Below, one piece after another: positions 1-4,357 of a DNA stretch of 4,357 bases. The notes beneath the pieces were generated by a model. It worked only from the letters and a program-made list of their open reading frames with translations, had not been told where the DNA came from and searched no databases. The translations under genes and the position numbers were made by a program. The DNA is from a virus (Duplodnaviria > Heunggongvirae > Uroviricota > Caudoviricetes), in IMG/VR virus record IMGVR_UViG_2693429733_000010, positions 1 through 4,357 of that record, one strand, 5' to 3'. Position 1 is the stretch's first letter; every line of letters starts with the position of its first letter.

Positions 1-26
1 AAAACACTATCAATAAGTTGGAGTCA

Positions 27-140
27 TTACCATTTTTTTGCTGTAGTCCAGTAAAAACCACCTTTAATTCCCAGGCGTTTTCTTACTTTGTCATTTTTTG
101 CTTCGCAATATAGTGCAAATTCTTCTTTATCAGTGCTCAT
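27..140 (-). CDS. small hypothetical protein (37 aa), distal end of the dicB-type operon
   Basis: ATG at 140..138, TAA at 29..27, bounded upstream by an in-frame stop. Translation MSTDKEEFALYCEAKNDKVRKRLGIKGGFYWTTAKKW. A GAGG lies about 10 nt upstream of the ATG (long spacer). Below the track's apparent ~60-aa cutoff, so found by manual translation. Same strand as the upstream operon. No recognisable motif. Confidence 0.3.
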   Translation of the reverse strand: MSTDKEEFALYCEAKNDKVRKRLGIKGGFYWTTAKKW

Positions 141-233
141 TATTGATAAACCTCATCACAGATTTAAGGGTGAACAAATCTCTGCCATTGCTGACATATA
201 AGAATGAAACTGGATATTTATTACGGTGCTGTT

Positions 234-422
234 TTAAAATCCTGCCGGGATTTCGTTATCCTGGTGAATAACTTTATCGACCGGATAACAGTTGCCTGGA
301 ATTTTCTGTTCGGTTGCTGCGGCCATACATTCCTGCATTGTTCTGTGAACACTGACTGCAATATCAACTGGCTCTCCGGAAACAAGAAAAACCGTCAGAA
401 TAAGTGCAAATACTGGATTCAT
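234..422 (-). CDS. ydfD: YdfD-like small protein (62 aa) with N-terminal hydrophobic segment
   Basis: Internal ATG at 422..420 of track ORF 234..476, preceded by AAGGA with about 8 nt spacer. Its ATG overlaps the TGA of the upstream dicB ORF (ATGA, minus-strand 422..419), implying translational coupling. The N-terminus MNPVFALILTVFLVSG is a hydrophobic segment. Size and position after dicB match the Qin prophage ydfD from memory. Confidence 0.65.
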   Translation of the reverse strand: MNPVFALILTVFLVSGEPVDIAVSVHRTMQECMAAATEQKIPGNCYPVDKVIHQDNEIPAGF

Positions 423-607
423 TGTGCACATCCTTTTGGCATCAGACGTAAACGGGCCAGCATTGAAACAATGCATACTTTATTTAATAACTCCCGTTCG
501 TGTTTTCTTTTGTTAATGGCCTCTTCAGTGAATACAGGATTACTGATAGTGACACCAATTTCAAAACAACCTTCAGACGTATTAACGTTTGGTAATAACG
601 TTTTCAT
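419..607 (-). CDS. dicB: DicB cell-division inhibitor (62 aa)
   Basis: Internal ATG at 607..605 of track ORF 419..712 (the track start at 712 is a GTG). SD GAGGG sits 7 nt upstream. Product MKTLLPNVNTSEGCFEIGVTISNPVFTEEAINKRKHERELLNKVCIVSMLARLRLMPKGCAQ is 62 aa, the length of E. coli DicB, and lies immediately downstream of DicF as in the Qin dicB operon. Confidence 0.8.
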   Translation of the reverse strand: MKTLLPNVNTSEGCFEIGVTISNPVFTEEAINKRKHERELLNKVCIVSMLARLRLMPKGCAQ

Positions 608-776
608 TATCGCGCCCTCAACAATGAGTTTTGTGATGCGGTGCCTGGTGCTTCCAGGTGACGTTAACCAGTTAACAATTAACGCCGGATACAGAGAATC
701 CACCCATAACACTGTTTTCGGTTTTAACTGTTCCGCGTGCGCTCAGCCGCATTCACCACATCACAAAATTCACTTT

Positions 777-834
777 AAAAAGGGCGGCAGAGCAGTCACG
801 GAGTAAAACTGATACCGCCAAACGTCACCAGAAA
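777..834 (-). ncRNA. dicF: DicF small regulatory RNA with 3' hairpin and U-tract
   Basis: Minus-strand sequence 834->777 reads TTTCTGGTGACGTTTGGCGGTATCAGTTTTACTCCGTGACTGCTCTGCCGCCCTTTTT. This matches the E. coli DicF sequence as I recall it, including the GGCGG...CCGCC terminal stem and T5 tail. Exact ends depend on processing. Confidence 0.85.
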
Positions 835-856
835 ATTGATAACAGAGGGCGTTGCA

Positions 857-1135
857 GCGGGGTTGTCACTTAAGCGTATGGTCAACCTGACAACCCGGTG
901 TCCTCAACGGGGAAGGAATAACCCCGCCATACTTACCGCCGCGCCATTTCGCGGATTGCCACAACCGGAAGCGCACGGTCGACGAAAATTTAACGACAGA
1001 CCATTTATGAACTAACAGCCTCGCCGTGCGCTTTCGCGTTATGCCCTGACTTTTCAGGGACATATCCTTTCAGTAAACTGTCAGTGCCGGATGCTCACCC
1101 GTGTCCGGCGCACGCACTCCACCTCACCCGTGGAG
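857..1135 (-). other. GC-rich, hairpin-dense untranslated region upstream of DicF on the operon strand (candidate processing or regulatory leader)
   Basis: Six inverted repeats are readable directly: GGGTTGTCA 860-868 / TGACAACCC 888-896; CGGGG 908-912 / CCCCG 922-926; CCGCG 939-943 / CGCGG 950-954; CCCTGA 1044-1049 / TCAGGG 1054-1059; GCCGGA 1086-1091 / TCCGGC 1104-1109; CTCCAC 1117-1122 / GTGGAG 1130-1135. No ORF with a credible RBS on either strand. Strand is assigned from the operon context. Confidence 0.4.
1094..1132. repeat. direct repeat of the 10-mer CTCACCCGTG (1094-1103 and 1123-1132), each inside a hairpin loop/stem
   Basis: Exact 10/10 identity, 29 bp apart, lying 36 and 65 bp upstream of the ATG of the plus-strand ORF at 1168. 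Confidence 0.5.
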
Positions 1136-1167
1136 AACTCCTTAATTACCAACCCTCAGGAGGGTGA

Positions 1168-1401
1168 ATGTTAAAATCAACTCTTATTGCTAAATGCCTT
1201 TATCAAAATCGCATGGTAAGCAGCATTTCAATAGGCGAGTCTGCAGTTAAAAGTATTTTCGAAGAGTACTTTCCCGGGCATGATTTTAATAAATGGAATA
1301 CCAAATTACCGCCAGCAGTTTCAACGCGTATTCTGAAAGCAACTGAAAGAGCAAGTACAATTCGCGTTAACTATTTCATTAAAGATTTGTGGGATCTTTG
1401 A
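1168..1401 (+). CDS. hypothetical protein (77 aa), plus-strand gene in low-GC cassette
   Basis: Track ORF. Strong SD AGGAGGG at 1157-1163 with 4 nt spacer to ATG 1168. AT-rich coding sequence. Convergent with the 135-aa ORF and overlapping it by 23 bp at the 3' ends. No recognisable family. Confidence 0.45.
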   Translation: MLKSTLIAKCLYQNRMVSSISIGESAVKSIFEEYFPGHDFNKWNTKLPPAVSTRILKATERASTIRVNYFIKDLWDL

Positions 1402-1786
1402 TATCCACAGAGCCTAAAGTATGTGCATATGGATGTGCTATTGTGCGCCCTCGCAGATTTGCATCATTTTCTAAATTCACTGAACGAAACAGGGCATCAA
1501 CAAGGCTCTGTACAATGCAAAGGCAATCGAAGACTGTCGCTGTTTCTGTTTTGATTGATGAAAGAACATGGCCATTCACGCAAACAGAAATTACCCGTTC
1601 ATTAACATCGCTTTCCTGCTTTTGATTATCAGAACCATATAGCCCAGAAAAAGCATTGCGCACATTACGAACCATATTATCGATGGTTTCTTTTTTGGTG
1701 TATGCCGGGTCAATTTTCACCAGACTATCACCGAGAGTCGTTGCAGCAATTGTCTGGATTTCTTTTGGTAAATCTTTAAATTCCAT
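1379..1786 (-). CDS. hypothetical protein (135 aa) in the leftward operon, low-GC
   Basis: Track ORF. ATG at 1786..1784 with GAGG 6 nt upstream. Lies 22 nt downstream of the stop of the 72-aa gene, so operon context holds. No TM segment or recognisable motif. AT-rich relative to flanks. Confidence 0.6.
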   Translation of the reverse strand: MEFKDLPKEIQTIAATTLGDSLVKIDPAYTKKETIDNMVRNVRNAFSGLYGSDNQKQESDVNERVISVCVNGHVLSSIKTETATVFDCLCIVQSLVDALFRSVNLENDANLRGRTIAHPYAHTLGSVDIKDPTNL

Positions 1787-1808
1787 TATTAGCCTCGTTG
1801 GTTAACCA

Positions 1809-2027
1809 TTAACGTGGGTATGTAATCATTCTGGCAATGCTTAATGCCGCTGCTTTTTCCAGATTGGTGATATCCTGCTCCAGAGCGGACAGATTTTCAG
1901 CCTGCTTAGCCCTGGCTTCATTGGCCCATTTCAGGTCCTGCGCAGCCTTAATTTTCTGGTGCATCCACTCATAAAGTTCATCATCGGTATAGTCTGGCGC
2001 GATGATGACGGGTTCTCGTTTCTGCAT
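1809..2027 (-). CDS. small operon protein (72 aa), YdfC-like by size and position
   Basis: Track ORF. ATG at 2027..2025 with SD GAGGA about 6 nt upstream. Third gene after the 51-aa and 42-aa genes, mirroring ydfA-ydfB-ydfC (51/42/72 aa) of the Qin dicB operon. Sequence identity to YdfC is not verified. Confidence 0.6.
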   Translation of the reverse strand: MQKREPVIIAPDYTDDELYEWMHQKIKAAQDLKWANEARAKQAENLSALEQDITNLEKAAALSIARMITYPR

Positions 2028-2056
2028 ACTGATTCCTCGCGGTGCTGCTTCGCTTA

Positions 2057-2185
2057 TCAGCCGTTAGATTTTGCCGAGCTGGAAAGCGCCTGTTTAAACT
2101 CACTGAAGCTGAGAGCTTCTTCGCCTTCGGCAAGGCCTTCGAAGTATTCTTCGTAAGCCTTTTCCATGATTGTGTCGAAATCCAT
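2057..2185 (-). CDS. YdfB/YdaG-like small protein (42 aa)
   Basis: Not in the track (under 60 aa). ATG at 2185..2183 with SD AGGTGA 5 nt upstream, TGA at 2059..2057. Translation MDFDTIMEKAYEEYFEGLAEGEEALSFSEFKQALSSSAKSNG. An in-frame upstream ATG at 2227 would give a 56-aa form overlapping the preceding gene. Confidence 0.6.
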   Translation of the reverse strand: MDFDTIMEKAYEEYFEGLAEGEEALSFSEFKQALSSSAKSNG

Positions 2186-2186
2186 A

Positions 2187-2342
2187 TCACTCACCTGAGT
2201 TTCTTTCCAGCCAGCGACGGGCACCATTTTCGGTTTTAAACGTTTTGCTTTTGGTATACGTCATCGCGGTAAACGTTCCATCCTGGTTAGGGAACACGCC
2301 GCACACCAGAGATTCGTTGTTGCCAAGATCGATAGTATCCAT
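2187..2342 (-). CDS. YdfA/YdaF-like small protein (51 aa)
   Basis: Internal ATG at 2342..2340 of track ORF 2187..2423, with GAGG about 5 nt upstream. Translation MDTIDLGNNESLVCGVFPNQDGTFTAMTYTKSKTFKTENGARRWLERNSGE. First gene downstream of the pL-like promoter. Confidence 0.65.
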   Translation of the reverse strand: MDTIDLGNNESLVCGVFPNQDGTFTAMTYTKSKTFKTENGARRWLERNSGE

Positions 2343-2522
2343 GTTGACCTCATTTCCCCTTAACGCCGGGGTAGCGGAACAAAAACCTGCTGCATAGTTA
2401 TTAAAGTTGAACCCTGCCGTCATGTTCTTACGCCTCGGGCTGGCTACTTAACCCCTGACCACTGTCTGGTAACTCGAAGTATTGCCCTGCATTCTGTGGG
2501 GCGGGGTGGGTTGACGCCTGAA

Positions 2523-2551
2523 AAAATAGCATCATTATTTTTTGATGTAAA
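2523..2551 (-). promoter_or_regulatory. pL-like leftward promoter: -35 TTTACA (2551..2546), 17-nt spacer, TG-extended -10 TATTTT (2528..2523)
   Basis: Minus strand reads TTTACA-17 nt-TATTTT with TG at -15/-14. Both hexamers overlap the two OL palindromes. Predicted start near 2516, leader about 175 nt to the ydfA-like ATG. Confidence 0.5.
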
Positions 2552-2565
2552 TAGCATCGCTATTG
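2524..2565. promoter_or_regulatory. OL-like operator pair: two 17-bp palindromic sites, centres 25 bp apart
   Basis: 2549-2565 AAATAGCATCGCTATTG (core ATAGCATCGCTAT is a perfect palindrome) and 2524-2540 AAATAGCATCATTATTT (15/17 to consensus). The same core recurs at OR. Confidence 0.7.
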
Positions 2566-2581
2566 TTTTTGTTGGGGCAAG

Positions 2582-2603
2582 AAAAAACCACCCTAAGGTG
2601 GTT
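2582..2603 (-). terminator. intrinsic terminator candidate after the toxin gene
   Basis: Minus strand: stem AACCACC / GGTGGTT (plus 2586-2592 / 2597-2603), 4-nt loop, then a T-run (plus-strand A6 at 2582-2587). Sits 17 nt past the toxin stop and just before OL. The stem is short, so moderate strength at best. Confidence 0.5.
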
Positions 2604-2619
2604 CTGTCGGCGGGAATAA

Positions 2620-2910
2620 TTAACTGTTTTTGCCTGGATACTGTCTTCGAGAATGCACAATATTTACTACTTCTATGCTTGATGCTGTTACTCGGTAAAG
2701 GATGATGTAGTTAGGATGAGTTACAATTTCACGAAGACCAAGAACTCGCTCGCTTGGAGGATACAGGTAAGGATGCTCTGTGAGCGGCAAAACGGATGTT
2801 TCAATTCGAATTTTCATTCTGCGTGCTGCCGCGGGATTTTCTTTAGCTATGTAGGCTACGATCTGGCGCAAATCATCACGAGCAGATGGTAGCCATAAAA
2901 CGGGTAACAT
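2620..2910 (-). CDS. parE: type II toxin, ParE/RelE family (96 aa), parE2-like
   Basis: Track ORF. ATG overlaps the antitoxin stop by 1 nt (minus strand TAATG at 2912..2908). Product is basic, about 11 kDa, consistent with the RelE/ParE fold. Lies downstream of a small acidic antitoxin-like gene. Confidence 0.85.
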   Translation of the reverse strand: MLPVLWLPSARDDLRQIVAYIAKENPAAARRMKIRIETSVLPLTEHPYLYPPSERVLGLREIVTHPNYIILYRVTASSIEVVNIVHSRRQYPGKNS

Positions 2911-3104
2911 TATTCACCTCTGTGAGTTGCAGCAGCAATTTGGGCAATAATTTGTTCCATTTCCGCCATTACCTCATCATGCGGAATCGCCGGGCGGGGA
3001 TCCGCGAGGCTTGCTGCTACTTTGGCCCGCAGCCATTCGTTGTAACTATTTTCTTGCTCAACTGTCTCAAATTCTGAAACCATTGGGGAAAGGACTGTAC
3101 TCAT
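2910..3104 (-). CDS. type II antitoxin (64 aa), PaaA2-like
   Basis: Track ORF. ATG at 3104 with SD GAGGAG about 9 nt upstream, only 19 nt after the repressor stop. Small acidic protein MSTVLSPMVSEFETVEQENSYNEWLRAKVAASLADPRPAIPHDEVMAEMEQIIAQIAAATHRGE. Matches the PaaA2 antitoxin size of the O157:H7 paaR2-paaA2-parE2 system from memory. Confidence 0.75.
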   Translation of the reverse strand: MSTVLSPMVSEFETVEQENSYNEWLRAKVAASLADPRPAIPHDEVMAEMEQIIAQIAAATHRGE

Positions 3105-3123
3105 TTTACATATCTCCTCTGAT

Positions 3124-3624
3124 TTAGGCGCGACGGCCTTTTTGTGCAGCTAACCACCGCGCAACCGTACGATCCATTGATTCTTTTTTATCTTTCATCT
3201 CCTGAAGCATGTGTTCTTGATCTTCTTTCGGAAAAGCTCTGAACGTATGGATTAAATCTCGTTCCATCGGCTCTACGGCAAACGGTAGTTCATCCTCTGT
3301 TTGTTCTGTGTCTGCTGGTAATGCGACTATGTTATCTTGCTGTGGTTCTCGACAATACATCCTTGCAATTTGCAGCAAATCTACCATGTCTGGCCTGATT
3401 GACTCAGGGGGAACTTTCAGTAAGCCAGCAAACTTTAGAACAGCCTCAAGGTTTAGTGGGGTTTGACCATTTAGGTAGTGACTTACCGCCCCTTGTGTTG
3501 AAAACCCCATAATTTCCGCCGCACGTTCCTGAGTCAATCCCAACTGAGATTTCTTTGCCATCCAGATTTCTTTCAGTCTTCTGGCGGCGTTGAGGTCGGT
3601 GTCTGACAATGATTTTCTTTTCAT
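3124..3624 (-). CDS. cI-like HTH (XRE-family) prophage repressor, 166 aa; PaaR2/RacR-like, no S24 peptidase domain
   Basis: Track ORF 3124..3654 begins at a GTG; the first ATG is at 3624..3622 (MKRKSLSDTDL...). HTH motif LTQERAAEIMGFSTQGAVSHYLNGQ. The C-terminal ~100 aa is acidic and lacks the GDSM-type serine motif of LexA/cI peptidases. Divergent from a cro-like gene across palindromic operators. Confidence 0.85.
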   Translation of the reverse strand: MKRKSLSDTDLNAARRLKEIWMAKKSQLGLTQERAAEIMGFSTQGAVSHYLNGQTPLNLEAVLKFAGLLKVPPESIRPDMVDLLQIARMYCREPQQDNIVALPADTEQTEDELPFAVEPMERDLIHTFRAFPKEDQEHMLQEMKDKKESMDRTVARWLAAQKGRRA

Positions 3625-3657
3625 ACATCCAATTCTAATAAGATTGCTAATCACTTT

Positions 3658-3686
3658 GAAATAGCATCGCTATTTACTTTTAAAAA
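3658..3686 (-). promoter_or_regulatory. PRM-like maintenance promoter candidate: TG-extended -10 TATTTC (3663..3658), weak -35 TTTTTA (3686..3681)
   Basis: Minus strand reads gaTGcTATTTC, embedded in the OR1 palindrome, the same motif as the pL -10. The weak -35 fits an activator-dependent PRM. Leader about 27 nt to ATG 3624. Confidence 0.35.
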
Positions 3687-3700
3687 TAACAGTGCTATTA
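3659..3700. promoter_or_regulatory. OR-like operator pair: 17-bp palindromes, centres 25 bp apart
   Basis: 3659-3675 AAATAGCATCGCTATTT is a perfect 17-bp palindrome. 3684-3700 AAATAACAGTGCTATTA matches it at 13/17. Same spacing and core as the OL pair. Confidence 0.7.
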
Positions 3701-3701
3701 A
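3673..3701 (+). promoter_or_regulatory. PR-like rightward promoter candidate: -35 TTTACT (3673-3678), 17-nt spacer, -10 TATTAA (3696-3701)
   Basis: Hexamers overlap OR1 and OR2 respectively, a mirror image of the pL/OL layout. Predicted start near 3708, upstream of the cro-like ATG at 3736. Confidence 0.4.
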
Positions 3702-3735
3702 TTATGCATTGGTAACACATCACATAGGGCGGATT

Positions 3736-3999
3736 ATGAATCTTGGAGAATATTTGCATCATTTTCATATAACCCAGAGTTCATTTGCTGAGATTGTTGG
3801 CGCATCCCAAGGGATGGTCAGCCACGTTATAACGGGGCGTGCAAAACTTACAGGAGAAAAAATATTACGTTGGTGTGAAGCAACGGGATGGGTGGTGACC
3901 CCACATGAGATTGACAGTAAAACCTACCCCAACCCAACTGACGGCTTGCCTGCTGAGTTTCAGGCTAACACACAACCATCGGCGGGGGTTGATTCATGA
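3736..3999 (+). CDS. Cro/YdaS-like small HTH regulator (87 aa)
   Basis: Track ORF 3709..3999 starts at a TTG; the first ATG is at 3736, preceded by GGG/GGCGG. HTH motif QSSFAEIVGASQGMVSHVITGR. Divergent from the repressor across OR. Confidence 0.8.
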   Translation: MNLGEYLHHFHITQSSFAEIVGASQGMVSHVITGRAKLTGEKILRWCEATGWVVTPHEIDSKTYPNPTDGLPAEFQANTQPSAGVDS

Positions 4000-4357
4000 A
4001 AATCAAGCATGAACACATCCGCATGGCGATGAAAGCCTGGGCGCATCCGGACGGTGAAAAAGTTCCGGCAGCTGAAATAACCAGGGTTTATTTCGAACTG
4101 GGAATGACGTTTCCGGTTCTGCATAACGACAGCAAGCACAACACGCTTTATCTCAACACCCAAAAGATTTTCCGTTGGCTGGATAAAGACACCCCTGACG
4201 CTGTTGAAAAAATTCAGGCGTTGTTACCTGCGATCGAAAGGGCAATGCCACCTCCGCTGGTGGCTCGAATGCGCAGCCACAGTTCAGCTTATTTTCGGGA
4301 ACTGGTGGAGACGCATGAACGACTGGTGAGAGACGCTGATGATTTTGTCGCAGTGGC
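3996..4357 (+). CDS. YdaT-like protein (proposed CII-like role), 5' partial, runs off window end
   Basis: ATG at 3996 overlaps the cro-like TGA (ATGA coupling). Open frame for 120 codons to the window end (MKIKHEHIRMAMKAWAHPDGEKVPAAEIT...). Absent from the track because no stop falls in the window. Position after the cro-like gene matches ydaS-ydaT. Confidence 0.7.
   Translation, partial: MKIKHEHIRMAMKAWAHPDGEKVPAAEITRVYFELGMTFPVLHNDSKHNTLYLNTQKIFRWLDKDTPDAVEKIQALLPAIERAMPPPLVARMRSHSSAYFRELVETHERLVRDADDFVAV

Follow-up and report, generated by a model that had tools for sequence, protein, structure and literature searches.

A PaaA-ParE-type toxin-antitoxin pair in the predicted repressor operon of a Qin/CP-933-like lambdoid prophage

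Introduction

In the cryptic prophage CP-933P of E. coli O157:H7, the paaR2-paaA2-parE2 genes are organised as an operon within the immunity region, with PaaR2 as the CI analogue (Jurenas 2021, PMC8630535), a term applied to it "despite lacking sequence similarity". The operon organisation has been demonstrated experimentally (PMC8630535, citing Hallez 2010), PaaR2 acts as repressor of PR and PL and regulates its own promoter PRM, and the paaR2 transcript has been mapped as leaderless, with a GATAAT hexamer 6 nt before the ATG (PMC8630535). The antitoxin PaaA2 is a degradation substrate of ClpAP and ClpXP, and a mini-F plasmid is stabilised by the paaR2-paaA2-parE2 locus as well as by ccdAB (PMC8630535). 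A reporter downstream of the toxin-antitoxin (TA) genes gave an appreciable signal in both states of the switch with no activation of the toxin, and the authors favour a role in addiction and genomic stabilisation (PMC8630535). A review adds that the paaR promoter is partly repressed by the PaaA-ParE complex as well. The literature further states that paaA2-parE2 "replaces rexA and rexB".

Canonical parDE systems (RK2, Vibrio, Caulobacter) have the ParE fold in common with this family, and their antitoxin has a ribbon-helix-helix DNA-binding domain. In lambda, rexAB is co-transcribed with the repressor and lies between the repressor and OL, while labile-antitoxin TA systems in other families can work by abortive infection. 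In the Qin prophage of E. coli K-12, no TA pair is known to follow dicA.

Here a stretch of 4,357 nucleotides from a tailed-phage record (IMG/VR IMGVR_UViG_2693429733_000010, positions 1 to 4,357), referred to as the window, was compared to these systems. A preliminary description of its sequence had proposed that a repressor, an antitoxin and a ParE-family toxin form one leftward transcription unit at the position of rexAB.

Results and Discussion

Locus architecture and conservation

The preliminary observation of the locus (Table 1) is confirmed in every detail. The antitoxin had been placed 19 nt past the repressor stop behind a Shine-Dalgarno sequence of its own, and this is exact, as the stop TAA occupies 3126-3124 and the antitoxin ATG 3104-3102, leaving a gap of exactly 19 nt (3105-3123) in which GAGGAG is read directly. 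The toxin ATG, described as overlapping the antitoxin stop, does so in the motif TAATG, where base 2910 is common to both genes and GAGGTG is found just upstream. The repressor start given here, yielding 166 aa, is that of the RefSeq annotation at an identical locus, while the mechanical open reading frame reaches a GTG at 3654.

Table 1. Positions of genes and candidate regulatory sites in the window
Feature	Position	Strand	Details
OL/PL	2523-2564	minus	candidate operators 2525-2539 and 2550-2564, 25 bp apart, overlapping the leftward promoter
PL-like promoter	-35 2551-2546, -10 2528-2523	minus	-35 TTTACA, -10 TATTTT
Terminator-like hairpin with U-rich tail	2579-2605	minus	predicted end of the leftward unit
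parE-type toxin gene	2620-2910	minus	96 aa; ORF call
paaA-type antitoxin gene	2910-3104	minus	64 aa; ORF call
Repressor-antitoxin spacer	3105-3123	minus	minus-strand sequence ATCAGAGGAGATATGTAAA; GAGGAG Shine-Dalgarno, 9 nt before antitoxin ATG
Repressor gene	3124-3624	minus	166 aa from ATG; ORF call
OR	3632-3701		candidate operators 3637-3651 (weak, OR3-like), 3660-3674 and 3685-3699
PRM-like promoter	-35 3660-3655, -10 3637-3632	minus	-35 TTCAAA, -10 TAGAAT
PR-like promoter	-35 3673-3678, -10 3696-3701	plus	-35 TTTACT, -10 TATTAA; hexamers read by eye
Divergent cro/ydaS-like HTH gene	3736-3999	plus	87 aa; Pfam HTH_3 4e-04; phrog_35 transcriptional repressor 8.1e-17
Candidate YdaT operator box	3989-4006	plus	TTGATTcatgaaAATCAA, perfect match; ydaS/ydaT junction (PRE region)
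ydaT-like (CII-analogue) gene	3996-4357	plus	truncated by window end; Pfam YdaT_toxin 5.3e-09

The module is common in Escherichia coli, a PaaA-ParE pair being present in 842 of 5,426 complete genomes, although its public annotation is restricted to "RelE/ParE toxin", "RelB antitoxin" or "hypothetical protein". Isolated phages give no useful comparison set, since among 50,697 phage records the toxin turned up at the protein level in a single one, that of phage Evi, where it is of the ParE2 type and unannotated. A megablast search of positions 2400-3800 against the phage collection matched only over the first ~114 bases, which represent the conserved PL leader. Among related prophage loci on viral contigs, the gene order repressor-antitoxin-toxin is kept in 80/80, as are the -1 (TAATG) overlap between antitoxin and toxin and a repressor-antitoxin gap of 17-29 nt; this recurrence argues that the geometry of the junctions is not due to chance. 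All three genes are under purifying selection, with dN/dS values of 0.05-0.07 (toxin), 0.07-0.09 (antitoxin) and 0.08 (repressor) that are approximate, as dS is near saturation (1.1-1.7).

The repressor, PaaA-type antitoxin and ParE-type toxin genes would thus constitute one leftward transcription unit, as the spacer is too short to hold a promoter plus an operator. It is highly improbable that paaA-parE is instead expressed mainly from a promoter of its own in the 3' end of the repressor gene, outside the immunity switch. The reporter signal found past the homologous TA genes in both switch states would be compatible with such a promoter, and the 3' part of the repressor gene, being the best-conserved stretch between repressor classes, could conceal one. 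However, a conserved stretch of the protein, under the selection noted above, accounts for this conservation, a promoter scan gave no promoter-like site at 3124-3330 on the minus strand, only the short spacer with its Shine-Dalgarno sequence separates the genes, and the homologous genes were shown experimentally to form an operon (Hallez 2010, cited in PMC8630535).

The proposed unit would stop just before OL/PL, at the hairpin AGAACCACC-UUAG-GGUGGUUUU (2605-2584, minus strand), which has a folding energy of -15.1 kcal/mol (z = -2.7; 2/200 shuffles fold as well). A terminator at this place had been noted before, and the hairpin with its T-run at 2605-2579 is indeed followed by two OL operators. 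A simple terminator scan missed this hairpin behind parE, as the longest stem takes up part of the T-run. Its stem is invariant and its loop variable among 24 distinct sequences of the same repressor class, and a hairpin is found at the matching place in the second O157:H7 locus (CP-933M-type) and in that of O104:H4.

The toxin and the antitoxin

The assignment of the toxin to the ParE family is borne out by a match covering the whole of the Pfam ParE_toxin profile (PF05016, E 1.8e-17, 64.1 bits against a cut-off of 23) and by a match of residues 1-93 to the PDB chain of ParE2 (5cw7_B, E 6.7e-37), while matches to the canonical toxins in PDB 3kxe and 5ceg are weak. The antitoxin matches Pfam PaaA2 (PF21217, E 3e-23, 81.9 bits against a cut-off of 27), NCBIfam NF050103 (E 3.3e-27) and the PDB structure of PaaA2 (3zbe, E 1.4e-23). 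In both proteins the pair resembles the second O157:H7 paralogue (86% identity for the toxin and 78% for the antitoxin) more than ParE2 (67%) and PaaA2 (75% over 56 aa), from which the antitoxin also differs in its C-terminal tail.

This second paralogue (here L002), its closest characterised relative, also has the TAATG overlap and is flanked by ydfA, ydaT and ECs1072, like the locus described here. Since O157:H7 has two copies and the other type equals the PDB ParE2 sequence, L002 would be the paaR1-paaA1-parE1 system reported on CP-933M. Its repressor of 133 aa belongs to a third N-terminal class, with ACAGTTTTTTATTGT-type operators.

Beyond PaaA2, Pfam detected no domain within the 64 aa of the antitoxin and hence no DNA-binding domain, in contrast to the antitoxin of canonical parDE. 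Without a ribbon-helix-helix domain, the TA complex is not expected to be chiefly responsible for autoregulation, and regulation would here be supplied by the separate repressor.

The repressor and its operators

The N-terminus of the repressor matches Pfam HTH_3 (E 8.3e-09), and residues 2-81 match the N-terminal domain of lambda CI (1lmb, E 2.9e-09). The match to full-length CI (3bdn, 236 aa) ends at residue 90, and Pfam gave no Peptidase_S24 match. Since the S24 autocleavage domain of lambda CI is missing, RecA-stimulated autocleavage would not be expected. Residues 106-162 instead match the C-terminus of DicA (NCBIfam NF007257, E 7e-08), restricted to profile positions 74-130 and with a score of 32.4 bits, far below the curated cut-off of 101 bits; the repressor thus shares ~57 C-terminal residues with DicA of Qin and differs from it in the N-terminal domain. 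The overall layout is a lambda-CI-like N-terminal HTH, an acidic linker and a PaaR/DicA-type C-terminal segment, the latter possibly having a role in oligomerisation.

The proposed comparison to PaaR2, PaaA2 and ParE2 holds for the toxin and the antitoxin, while the repressor is not homologous to PaaR1 or PaaR2 over its full length: only the C-terminal 44-64 aa align, with 52-56% identity to the repressors of both O157/O111 TA loci. PaaR2 is also shorter (123 aa), and its N-terminal DNA-binding domain is unrelated to the lambda-CI-like domain found here. In the related loci compared, the repressor N-terminal domains fall into three unrelated classes.

A search for AATAGC-N3-GCTATT with at most three mismatches gave nine matches against 2.0 expected, a number reached in none of 200 shuffles. 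Five of the nine are located at OL (2525, 2550) and OR (3637, 3660, 3685), although the OR3-like site, with three mismatches, could be a chance match. The half-sites are conserved while the centres vary (20-24 distinct sequences of relatives), and the OR promoter hexamers are all invariant or nearly so (20 distinct sequences). In CP-933P the operators are instead GTTTAGTAA repeats, and in the four loci compared the OR and OL operators co-vary with the class of the repressor N-terminal domain. Only 7 nt separate the end of the PRM-like -10 hexamer from the repressor ATG, so that the repressor mRNA would be leaderless, as mapped for paaR2. A promoter-like site inside the repressor gene (3537-3509), within its 5' portion, carries no weight by itself, as the scan gave four sites against 2.6 expected.

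The distribution of these operators bears on the relation between the repressor and PaaA. That the two represent the halves of an ancestral ParD-like antitoxin, in a self-contained TA operon residing in the prophage by chance, is hardly probable at all. Such an origin would agree with the absence of a DNA-binding domain in PaaA and with the presence of a regulator directly upstream at every enterobacterial locus, and it was raised, yet doubted, in PMC8630535. However, the lambda-CI-like N-terminus and DicA-type C-terminus give the protein the look of a prophage repressor, and its operators are also found at OL, past the TA pair, where they overlap the promoters of neighbouring phage operons. 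Also, 74 loci in other Proteobacteria encode an equally short PaaA (59-71 aa) paired with ParE without any PaaR-like, ydaS or ydaT gene, which indicates that the two-gene module also occurs by itself. The open reading frames upstream of these non-enteric pairs have little in common and for the most part seem to be spurious, without a recurring regulator among them.

The immunity region

The locus contains the immunity features of the CP-933P type, that is, divergent ydaS and ydaT, a TTGATT-N6-AATCAA box where these two genes meet, and repressor operators in OR as well as in OL. The cro/ydaS-like gene has a homologue in 80/80 relatives, although its product is only 29% identical to the CP-933P counterpart, and the ydaT-like product is 79-82% identical to YdaT of the O157, O104 and O111 loci. 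The YdaT box is alone not statistically strong, as with up to two mismatches allowed at least one match occurred in 75/200 shuffles, but its motif and position are those footprinted in CP-933P.

The correspondence to paaR2-paaA2-parE2 suggested in the preliminary description thus stands: besides the homologous PaaA and ParE and the CP-933P-type flanks, the three genes follow each other in the same sequence and direction inside a lambdoid immunity region at both loci, with the TA pair in the rexAB slot. Both systems also have a repressor with a conserved C-terminal segment and no S24 domain, ydaS-ydaT with the YdaT box, OR/OL, and a promoter so positioned that the repressor mRNA would lack a leader. 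As the operon in the CP-933P immunity region is published (PMC8630535), the verdict 'probably known rather than new' was justified. The locus is a further copy of an arrangement described for lambda-like prophages of E. coli, and its novelty is confined to the DNA-binding half of the repressor.

Proposed function

Taken together, the region very probably represents the immunity module of a Qin/CP-933-like lambdoid prophage, with the operon, switch and addiction role proposed here. Transcription of the unit would start at the PRM-like promoter, with the 5' end coinciding with the repressor ATG to within one base. The repressor is predicted to bind the 15-bp AATAGC-N3-GCTATT operators, three at OR and two at OL, and would thereby silence both the rightward cro/ydaS-ydaT operon and the leftward ydfA-ydfB-ydfC-dicF-dicB operon, the one expected under repressor control as in Qin. 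It would also set the level at which it and the TA pair are expressed, and the YdaT box at the ydaS/ydaT junction may provide a PRE-like second entry to the repressor-antitoxin-toxin unit. Activation of PRM, cooperativity and looping can only be extrapolated to this repressor, as it departs from PaaR2 in both its DNA-binding domain and its operators.

Judging from the homologue, PaaA would neutralise ParE by direct binding, and ParE would be a nucleoid-associated, SOS-inducing and probably topoisomerase-directed toxin. If the immunity region were lost, the labile antitoxin would no longer be made and the cell would be poisoned, which would stabilise the prophage or its immunity core. Since the antitoxin of the homologue is labile and ParE toxic, addiction is the most likely role of the pair; for this locus we infer co-transcription, a leaderless start, toxicity, antitoxin lability and addiction alike. 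In the best-matching E. coli genome, the module resides in a degraded prophage in which the Q gene and the terminase are frameshifted and the portal gene is split by an IS element. Toxin expression had also been proposed to be tied to lysogenic maintenance. This holds only in part, and the link between the lysogenic state and toxin action is weak, since the TA genes of the homologue are transcribed in both switch states without activation of the toxin.

The location of the TA pair may also suggest a Rex-like function. As in lambda cI-rexA-rexB, the accessory genes are found on the OL side of the repressor gene, between the two, and are co-oriented with a repressor homologous to CI in its N-terminal domain, and the OR/OL arrangement and leaderless repressor mRNA are analogous. 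A role in abortive infection or exclusion, with superinfection freeing ParE via shut-off of host transcription or loss of the antitoxin, would be in line with this position, with co-transcription with the repressor as for rexAB, with the abundance of the module and the purifying selection on it, and with the ability of labile-antitoxin TA systems in other families to act in this way. Such a role is nevertheless improbable. The toxin and the antitoxin show no similarity to RexA or RexB, Pfam giving only ParE_toxin and PaaA2, so that the map position alone is in common. PADLOC 2.0 returned no match for toxin, antitoxin or repressor at E <= 0.01, and the publications consulted report no phage-defence phenotype, the authors of the homologue study arguing for addiction and genomic stabilisation (PMC8630535).

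Implications

The discovery value of the locus is small, since architecture, regulation and addictive behaviour are published for a close homologue. However, the allele joins a PaaR-type C-terminus to a true homologue of the lambda CI N-terminus, so that the analogy of these repressors to CI is here backed by homology. A tentative and rather doubtful extension of the addiction role is that the repressor C-terminus, paaA and parE form a conserved addictive core, around which immunity specificity is swapped in two pieces (the N-terminal domain with OR and cro, and OL), with the joint inside the repressor gene. Heteroimmune recombinants retaining this core would then be favoured by the TA pair, and the window would be one of them, with a lambda-CI-type DNA-binding domain. 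If true, the TA pair would police recombination in the immunity region, as speculated by Jurenas et al. (PMC8630535). The three repressor classes with matching OR and OL around one TA core constitute a natural data set on whether the TA pair constrains such recombination.

Gene arrangement and protein identities

The coupling of repressor, antitoxin and toxin genes noted earlier is real and was interpreted correctly, and it belongs to the published paaR2-paaA2-parE2 system of prophage CP-933P. The three minus-strand reading frames proposed in the preliminary description are confirmed by the ORF list and the sequence, and so is their tight coupling: exactly 19 nt separate the repressor stop from the antitoxin ATG, with GAGGAG 9 nt before the latter, and the antitoxin stop and toxin start have one base in common (TAATG). 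The terminator that had been placed just before OL is likewise present, as a hairpin and U-rich tail with operators beyond. A simple terminator scan did not report it, because the longest stem takes in part of the T-run.

Features of the immunity region and its flanks, in window coordinates
Feature	Position	Strand	Remarks
Repressor gene	3624-3124	minus	166 aa from ATG; RefSeq uses the same ATG in an identical locus
Repressor residues ~100-166	3124-3330	minus	
Antitoxin gene	3104-2910	minus	64 aa
Toxin gene	2910-2620	minus	96 aa
Hairpin (9-bp), then U-rich tail	2605-2579	minus	directly 3' of toxin stop; dG -15.1 kcal/mol, z = -2.7 (folding)
OL near-palindromes	2550, 2525		
OR near-palindromes	3660, 3685, 3637		3637 weaker
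cro/ydaS-like HTH protein	3736-3999		divergent from repressor
YdaT box	3989-4006		perfect match; position as published for CP-933P (PMC9986795)
YdaT-family protein	3996 onward		divergent from repressor; cut by window end
Cassette	1155-1788		634 bp
Cassette ORF	1379-1786	minus	135 aa; phrog_1363
Cassette ORF, convergent	1168-1401	plus	77 aa; strong AGGAGG Shine-Dalgarno; phrog_10348
DicF small RNA gene, complete	782-833	minus	Rfam RF00039, 76.7 bits vs gathering score 48
dicB ORF	419-712	minus	last 62 codons match NCBIfam CellDivInhibDicB, 4.7e-38
Small ORF	234-476	minus	phrog_1092
Exonuclease VIII/RecE-like gene	27-140	minus	first 37 codons

The toxin covers the full Pfam ParE_toxin profile (1.8e-17) and aligns with the E. 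coli O157 ParE2 structure (PDB 5cw7_B, 6.7e-37), which bears out its earlier assignment to the ParE family. The antitoxin matches Pfam PaaA2 (3e-23) and the solved PaaA2 (PDB 3zbe, 1.4e-23), and no other domain was found in it. The repressor has a Pfam HTH_3 domain; its residues 2-81 align with the lambda CI N-terminal domain (2.9e-09) and residues 106-162 match the DicA C-terminus, well under the DicA family cut-off. In RefSeq, PaaA-type antitoxins appear as 'RelB family antitoxin' or 'hypothetical protein', and the repressor carries just the name 'helix-turn-helix domain-containing protein'.

The 15-bp near-palindrome AATAGC-N3-GCTATT occurs twice past the hairpin and three times between the repressor gene and the divergent cro/ydaS-like gene, with 9 matches overall against 2.0 expected, a count reached in 0 of 200 shuffles. 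A PRM-like -10 (TAGAAT) stops 7 nt short of the repressor ATG, which no Shine-Dalgarno sequence precedes; since the PaaR2 locus is alike, with GATAAT 6 nt before the paaR2 ATG, and the leaderless start of paaR2 was mapped experimentally (PMC8630535), a leaderless start of the window repressor mRNA is a reasonable inference. Counted from this predicted start, the three OR sites have their centres near -20, -43 and -68. Such a spacing presumably resembles the layout of lambda OR3, OR2 and OR1 relative to PRM.

Past OL comes the early-left operon of a Qin/CP-933-type lambdoid prophage, with ydfA (DUF1391), ydfB, ydfC, the DicF RNA, dicB and the beginning of an exonuclease VIII-like gene. The DicF gene, between ydfC and dicB in this leftward operon, is placed as in the Qin prophage. 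A cassette in this region is missing from the closest relatives (the E. coli FDAARGOS_944 locus L001, comparison loci L090 and L120, and others), where position 1154 abuts 1789; phage Evi has it, as do 677 of 5,426 E. coli genomes. The 3' ends of its two ORFs overlap by 23 nt, and neither ORF has a match in Pfam or NCBIfam.

Relation to known immunity regions

The immunity region of CP-933P contains paaR2-paaA2-parE2 as an operon. PaaR2, translated from a leaderless mRNA, is its CI analogue, with operators at OR and, past the TA genes, in an OL/PL region; YdaS corresponds to Cro, and YdaT, which activates a PRE-like promoter, to CII (Jurenas et al. 2021, PMC8630535). The YdaT site, TTGATT-N6-AATCAA, lies at the ydaS end (Prolic-Kalinsek et al. 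2023, PMC9986795). This literature (PMC8630535, PMC9986795) supports both the remark that the pair occupies the rex position and the suspicion that the system was known. For a Rex-like abortive infection exerted by the TA pair there is no evidence, and PADLOC was negative. In CP-933P the TA genes are transcribed in either state of the switch, with no activation of the toxin (PMC8630535); expression of the homologue in both states would suit a TA-specific internal promoter, but no candidate site for one was found.

The window was compared with reference loci from O111 (L004), from O104:H4 (L003) and with the other O157:H7 copy (L002); the toxin of L004 is the PDB ParE2 sequence, and its regulator includes MQKKE, the reported start of PaaR2. 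The window toxin is 86%, 89% and 67% identical to those of L002, L003 and L004, and the antitoxin 78%, 84% and 75%, respectively. O157:H7 has two paralogous systems, the antitoxins of which do not cross-neutralise (review, PMC4803016). The repressors are alike in a C-terminal segment only (52-56% identity over 44-64 aa; consensus roughly ELLQxFxAFPxEDQxxMLxExKxKKxSMxxxxARWLAAQKxRRA), and there are three unrelated classes of N-terminal domain, each with its own operator sequence at both OR and OL. Homologous across the classes are the TA genes and repressor C-terminus between OR and OL, as well as the flanks, with the PL leader and ydfA on one side and ydaT on the other. The window repressor is of the lambda-CI-like class, as is the O104:H4 copy (78% identical), and the sole distinguishing feature of the window copy is this lambda-CI-type DNA-binding domain joined to a PaaR/DicA-type C-terminus, with its own operators. 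Repressor residues ~100-166, common to the three classes and DicA C-terminus-like, may be the module for oligomerisation, as PaaR2 reportedly forms octamers (PMC8630535). Over 2211-4357 the window has matches at about 99% in other viral contigs, L085-L092. Against L001 there is a mosaic boundary at ~3996-4357: the immunity region is 99% identical, the ydaT-like product only 81%.

Conservation and distribution

A scan of viral contigs gave 80 loci, all of which have the order repressor C-terminus, antitoxin, toxin, the one-base antitoxin/toxin overlap, a repressor-antitoxin gap of 17-29 nt, and divergent ydaS-like and ydaT-like genes. Within the window's repressor class (20 distinct OR and 24 distinct OL sequences), operator half-sites, PRM-like -35/-10, PR-like -35 and terminator stem are (nearly) invariant, with variation in the operator centres and the hairpin loop, as would be expected of functional sites. 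For all three genes dN/dS is 0.05-0.09 (window versus O104 or O157 copies), an approximate value with dS near saturation.

Of 5,426 complete E. coli genomes, 842 carry the TA pair, 72 the window's repressor class at full length, and two the exact allele (99% identity). In one of these two the prophage adjoins a tRNA-Ser gene and shows clear decay: Q and the terminase gene are frameshifted, and an IS splits the portal gene. Among 50,697 deposited phage genomes only that of phage Evi encodes the toxin (ParE2 type, same gene order), and parE is unannotated in its record.

Among non-enteric Proteobacteria, a PaaA as short as that of the window lies next to ParE in 74 loci at 52-73% identity, including Bartonella, acetic acid bacteria, Acidithiobacillus, Comamonadaceae, Pseudomonas and others, and no PaaR-like, ydaS or ydaT gene and no conserved upstream or adjacent regulator was found at them. 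Many Alpha-, Beta- and Gammaproteobacteria have stand-alone paaA-parE pairs (comparison loci L005-L084), with antitoxins of 59-71 aa that lack a DNA-binding domain. The distribution speaks for the capture, in enterobacterial lambdoid phages, of a self-standing two-gene module behind a prophage repressor of DicA type, and against the repressor being a split-off half of the antitoxin.

Proposed function

In the CP-933P system, ClpAP and ClpXP degrade PaaA2, ParE2 triggers the SOS response, and the paaR2-paaA2-parE2 locus stabilises a mini-F plasmid (PMC8630535). From such homologues we infer the function of the window allele throughout, and addiction is the best-supported mechanism. The three genes would be transcribed leftward as a single repressor-controlled unit from PRM, and also from PRE under YdaT. 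SOS induction through repressor autocleavage would not be expected, because the S24 peptidase domain is absent from the repressor. ParE would be neutralised by direct binding of PaaA, which would itself be proteolytically labile; loss of the region would for this reason lead to death or growth arrest, and the immunity core of the prophage would thereby be stabilised.
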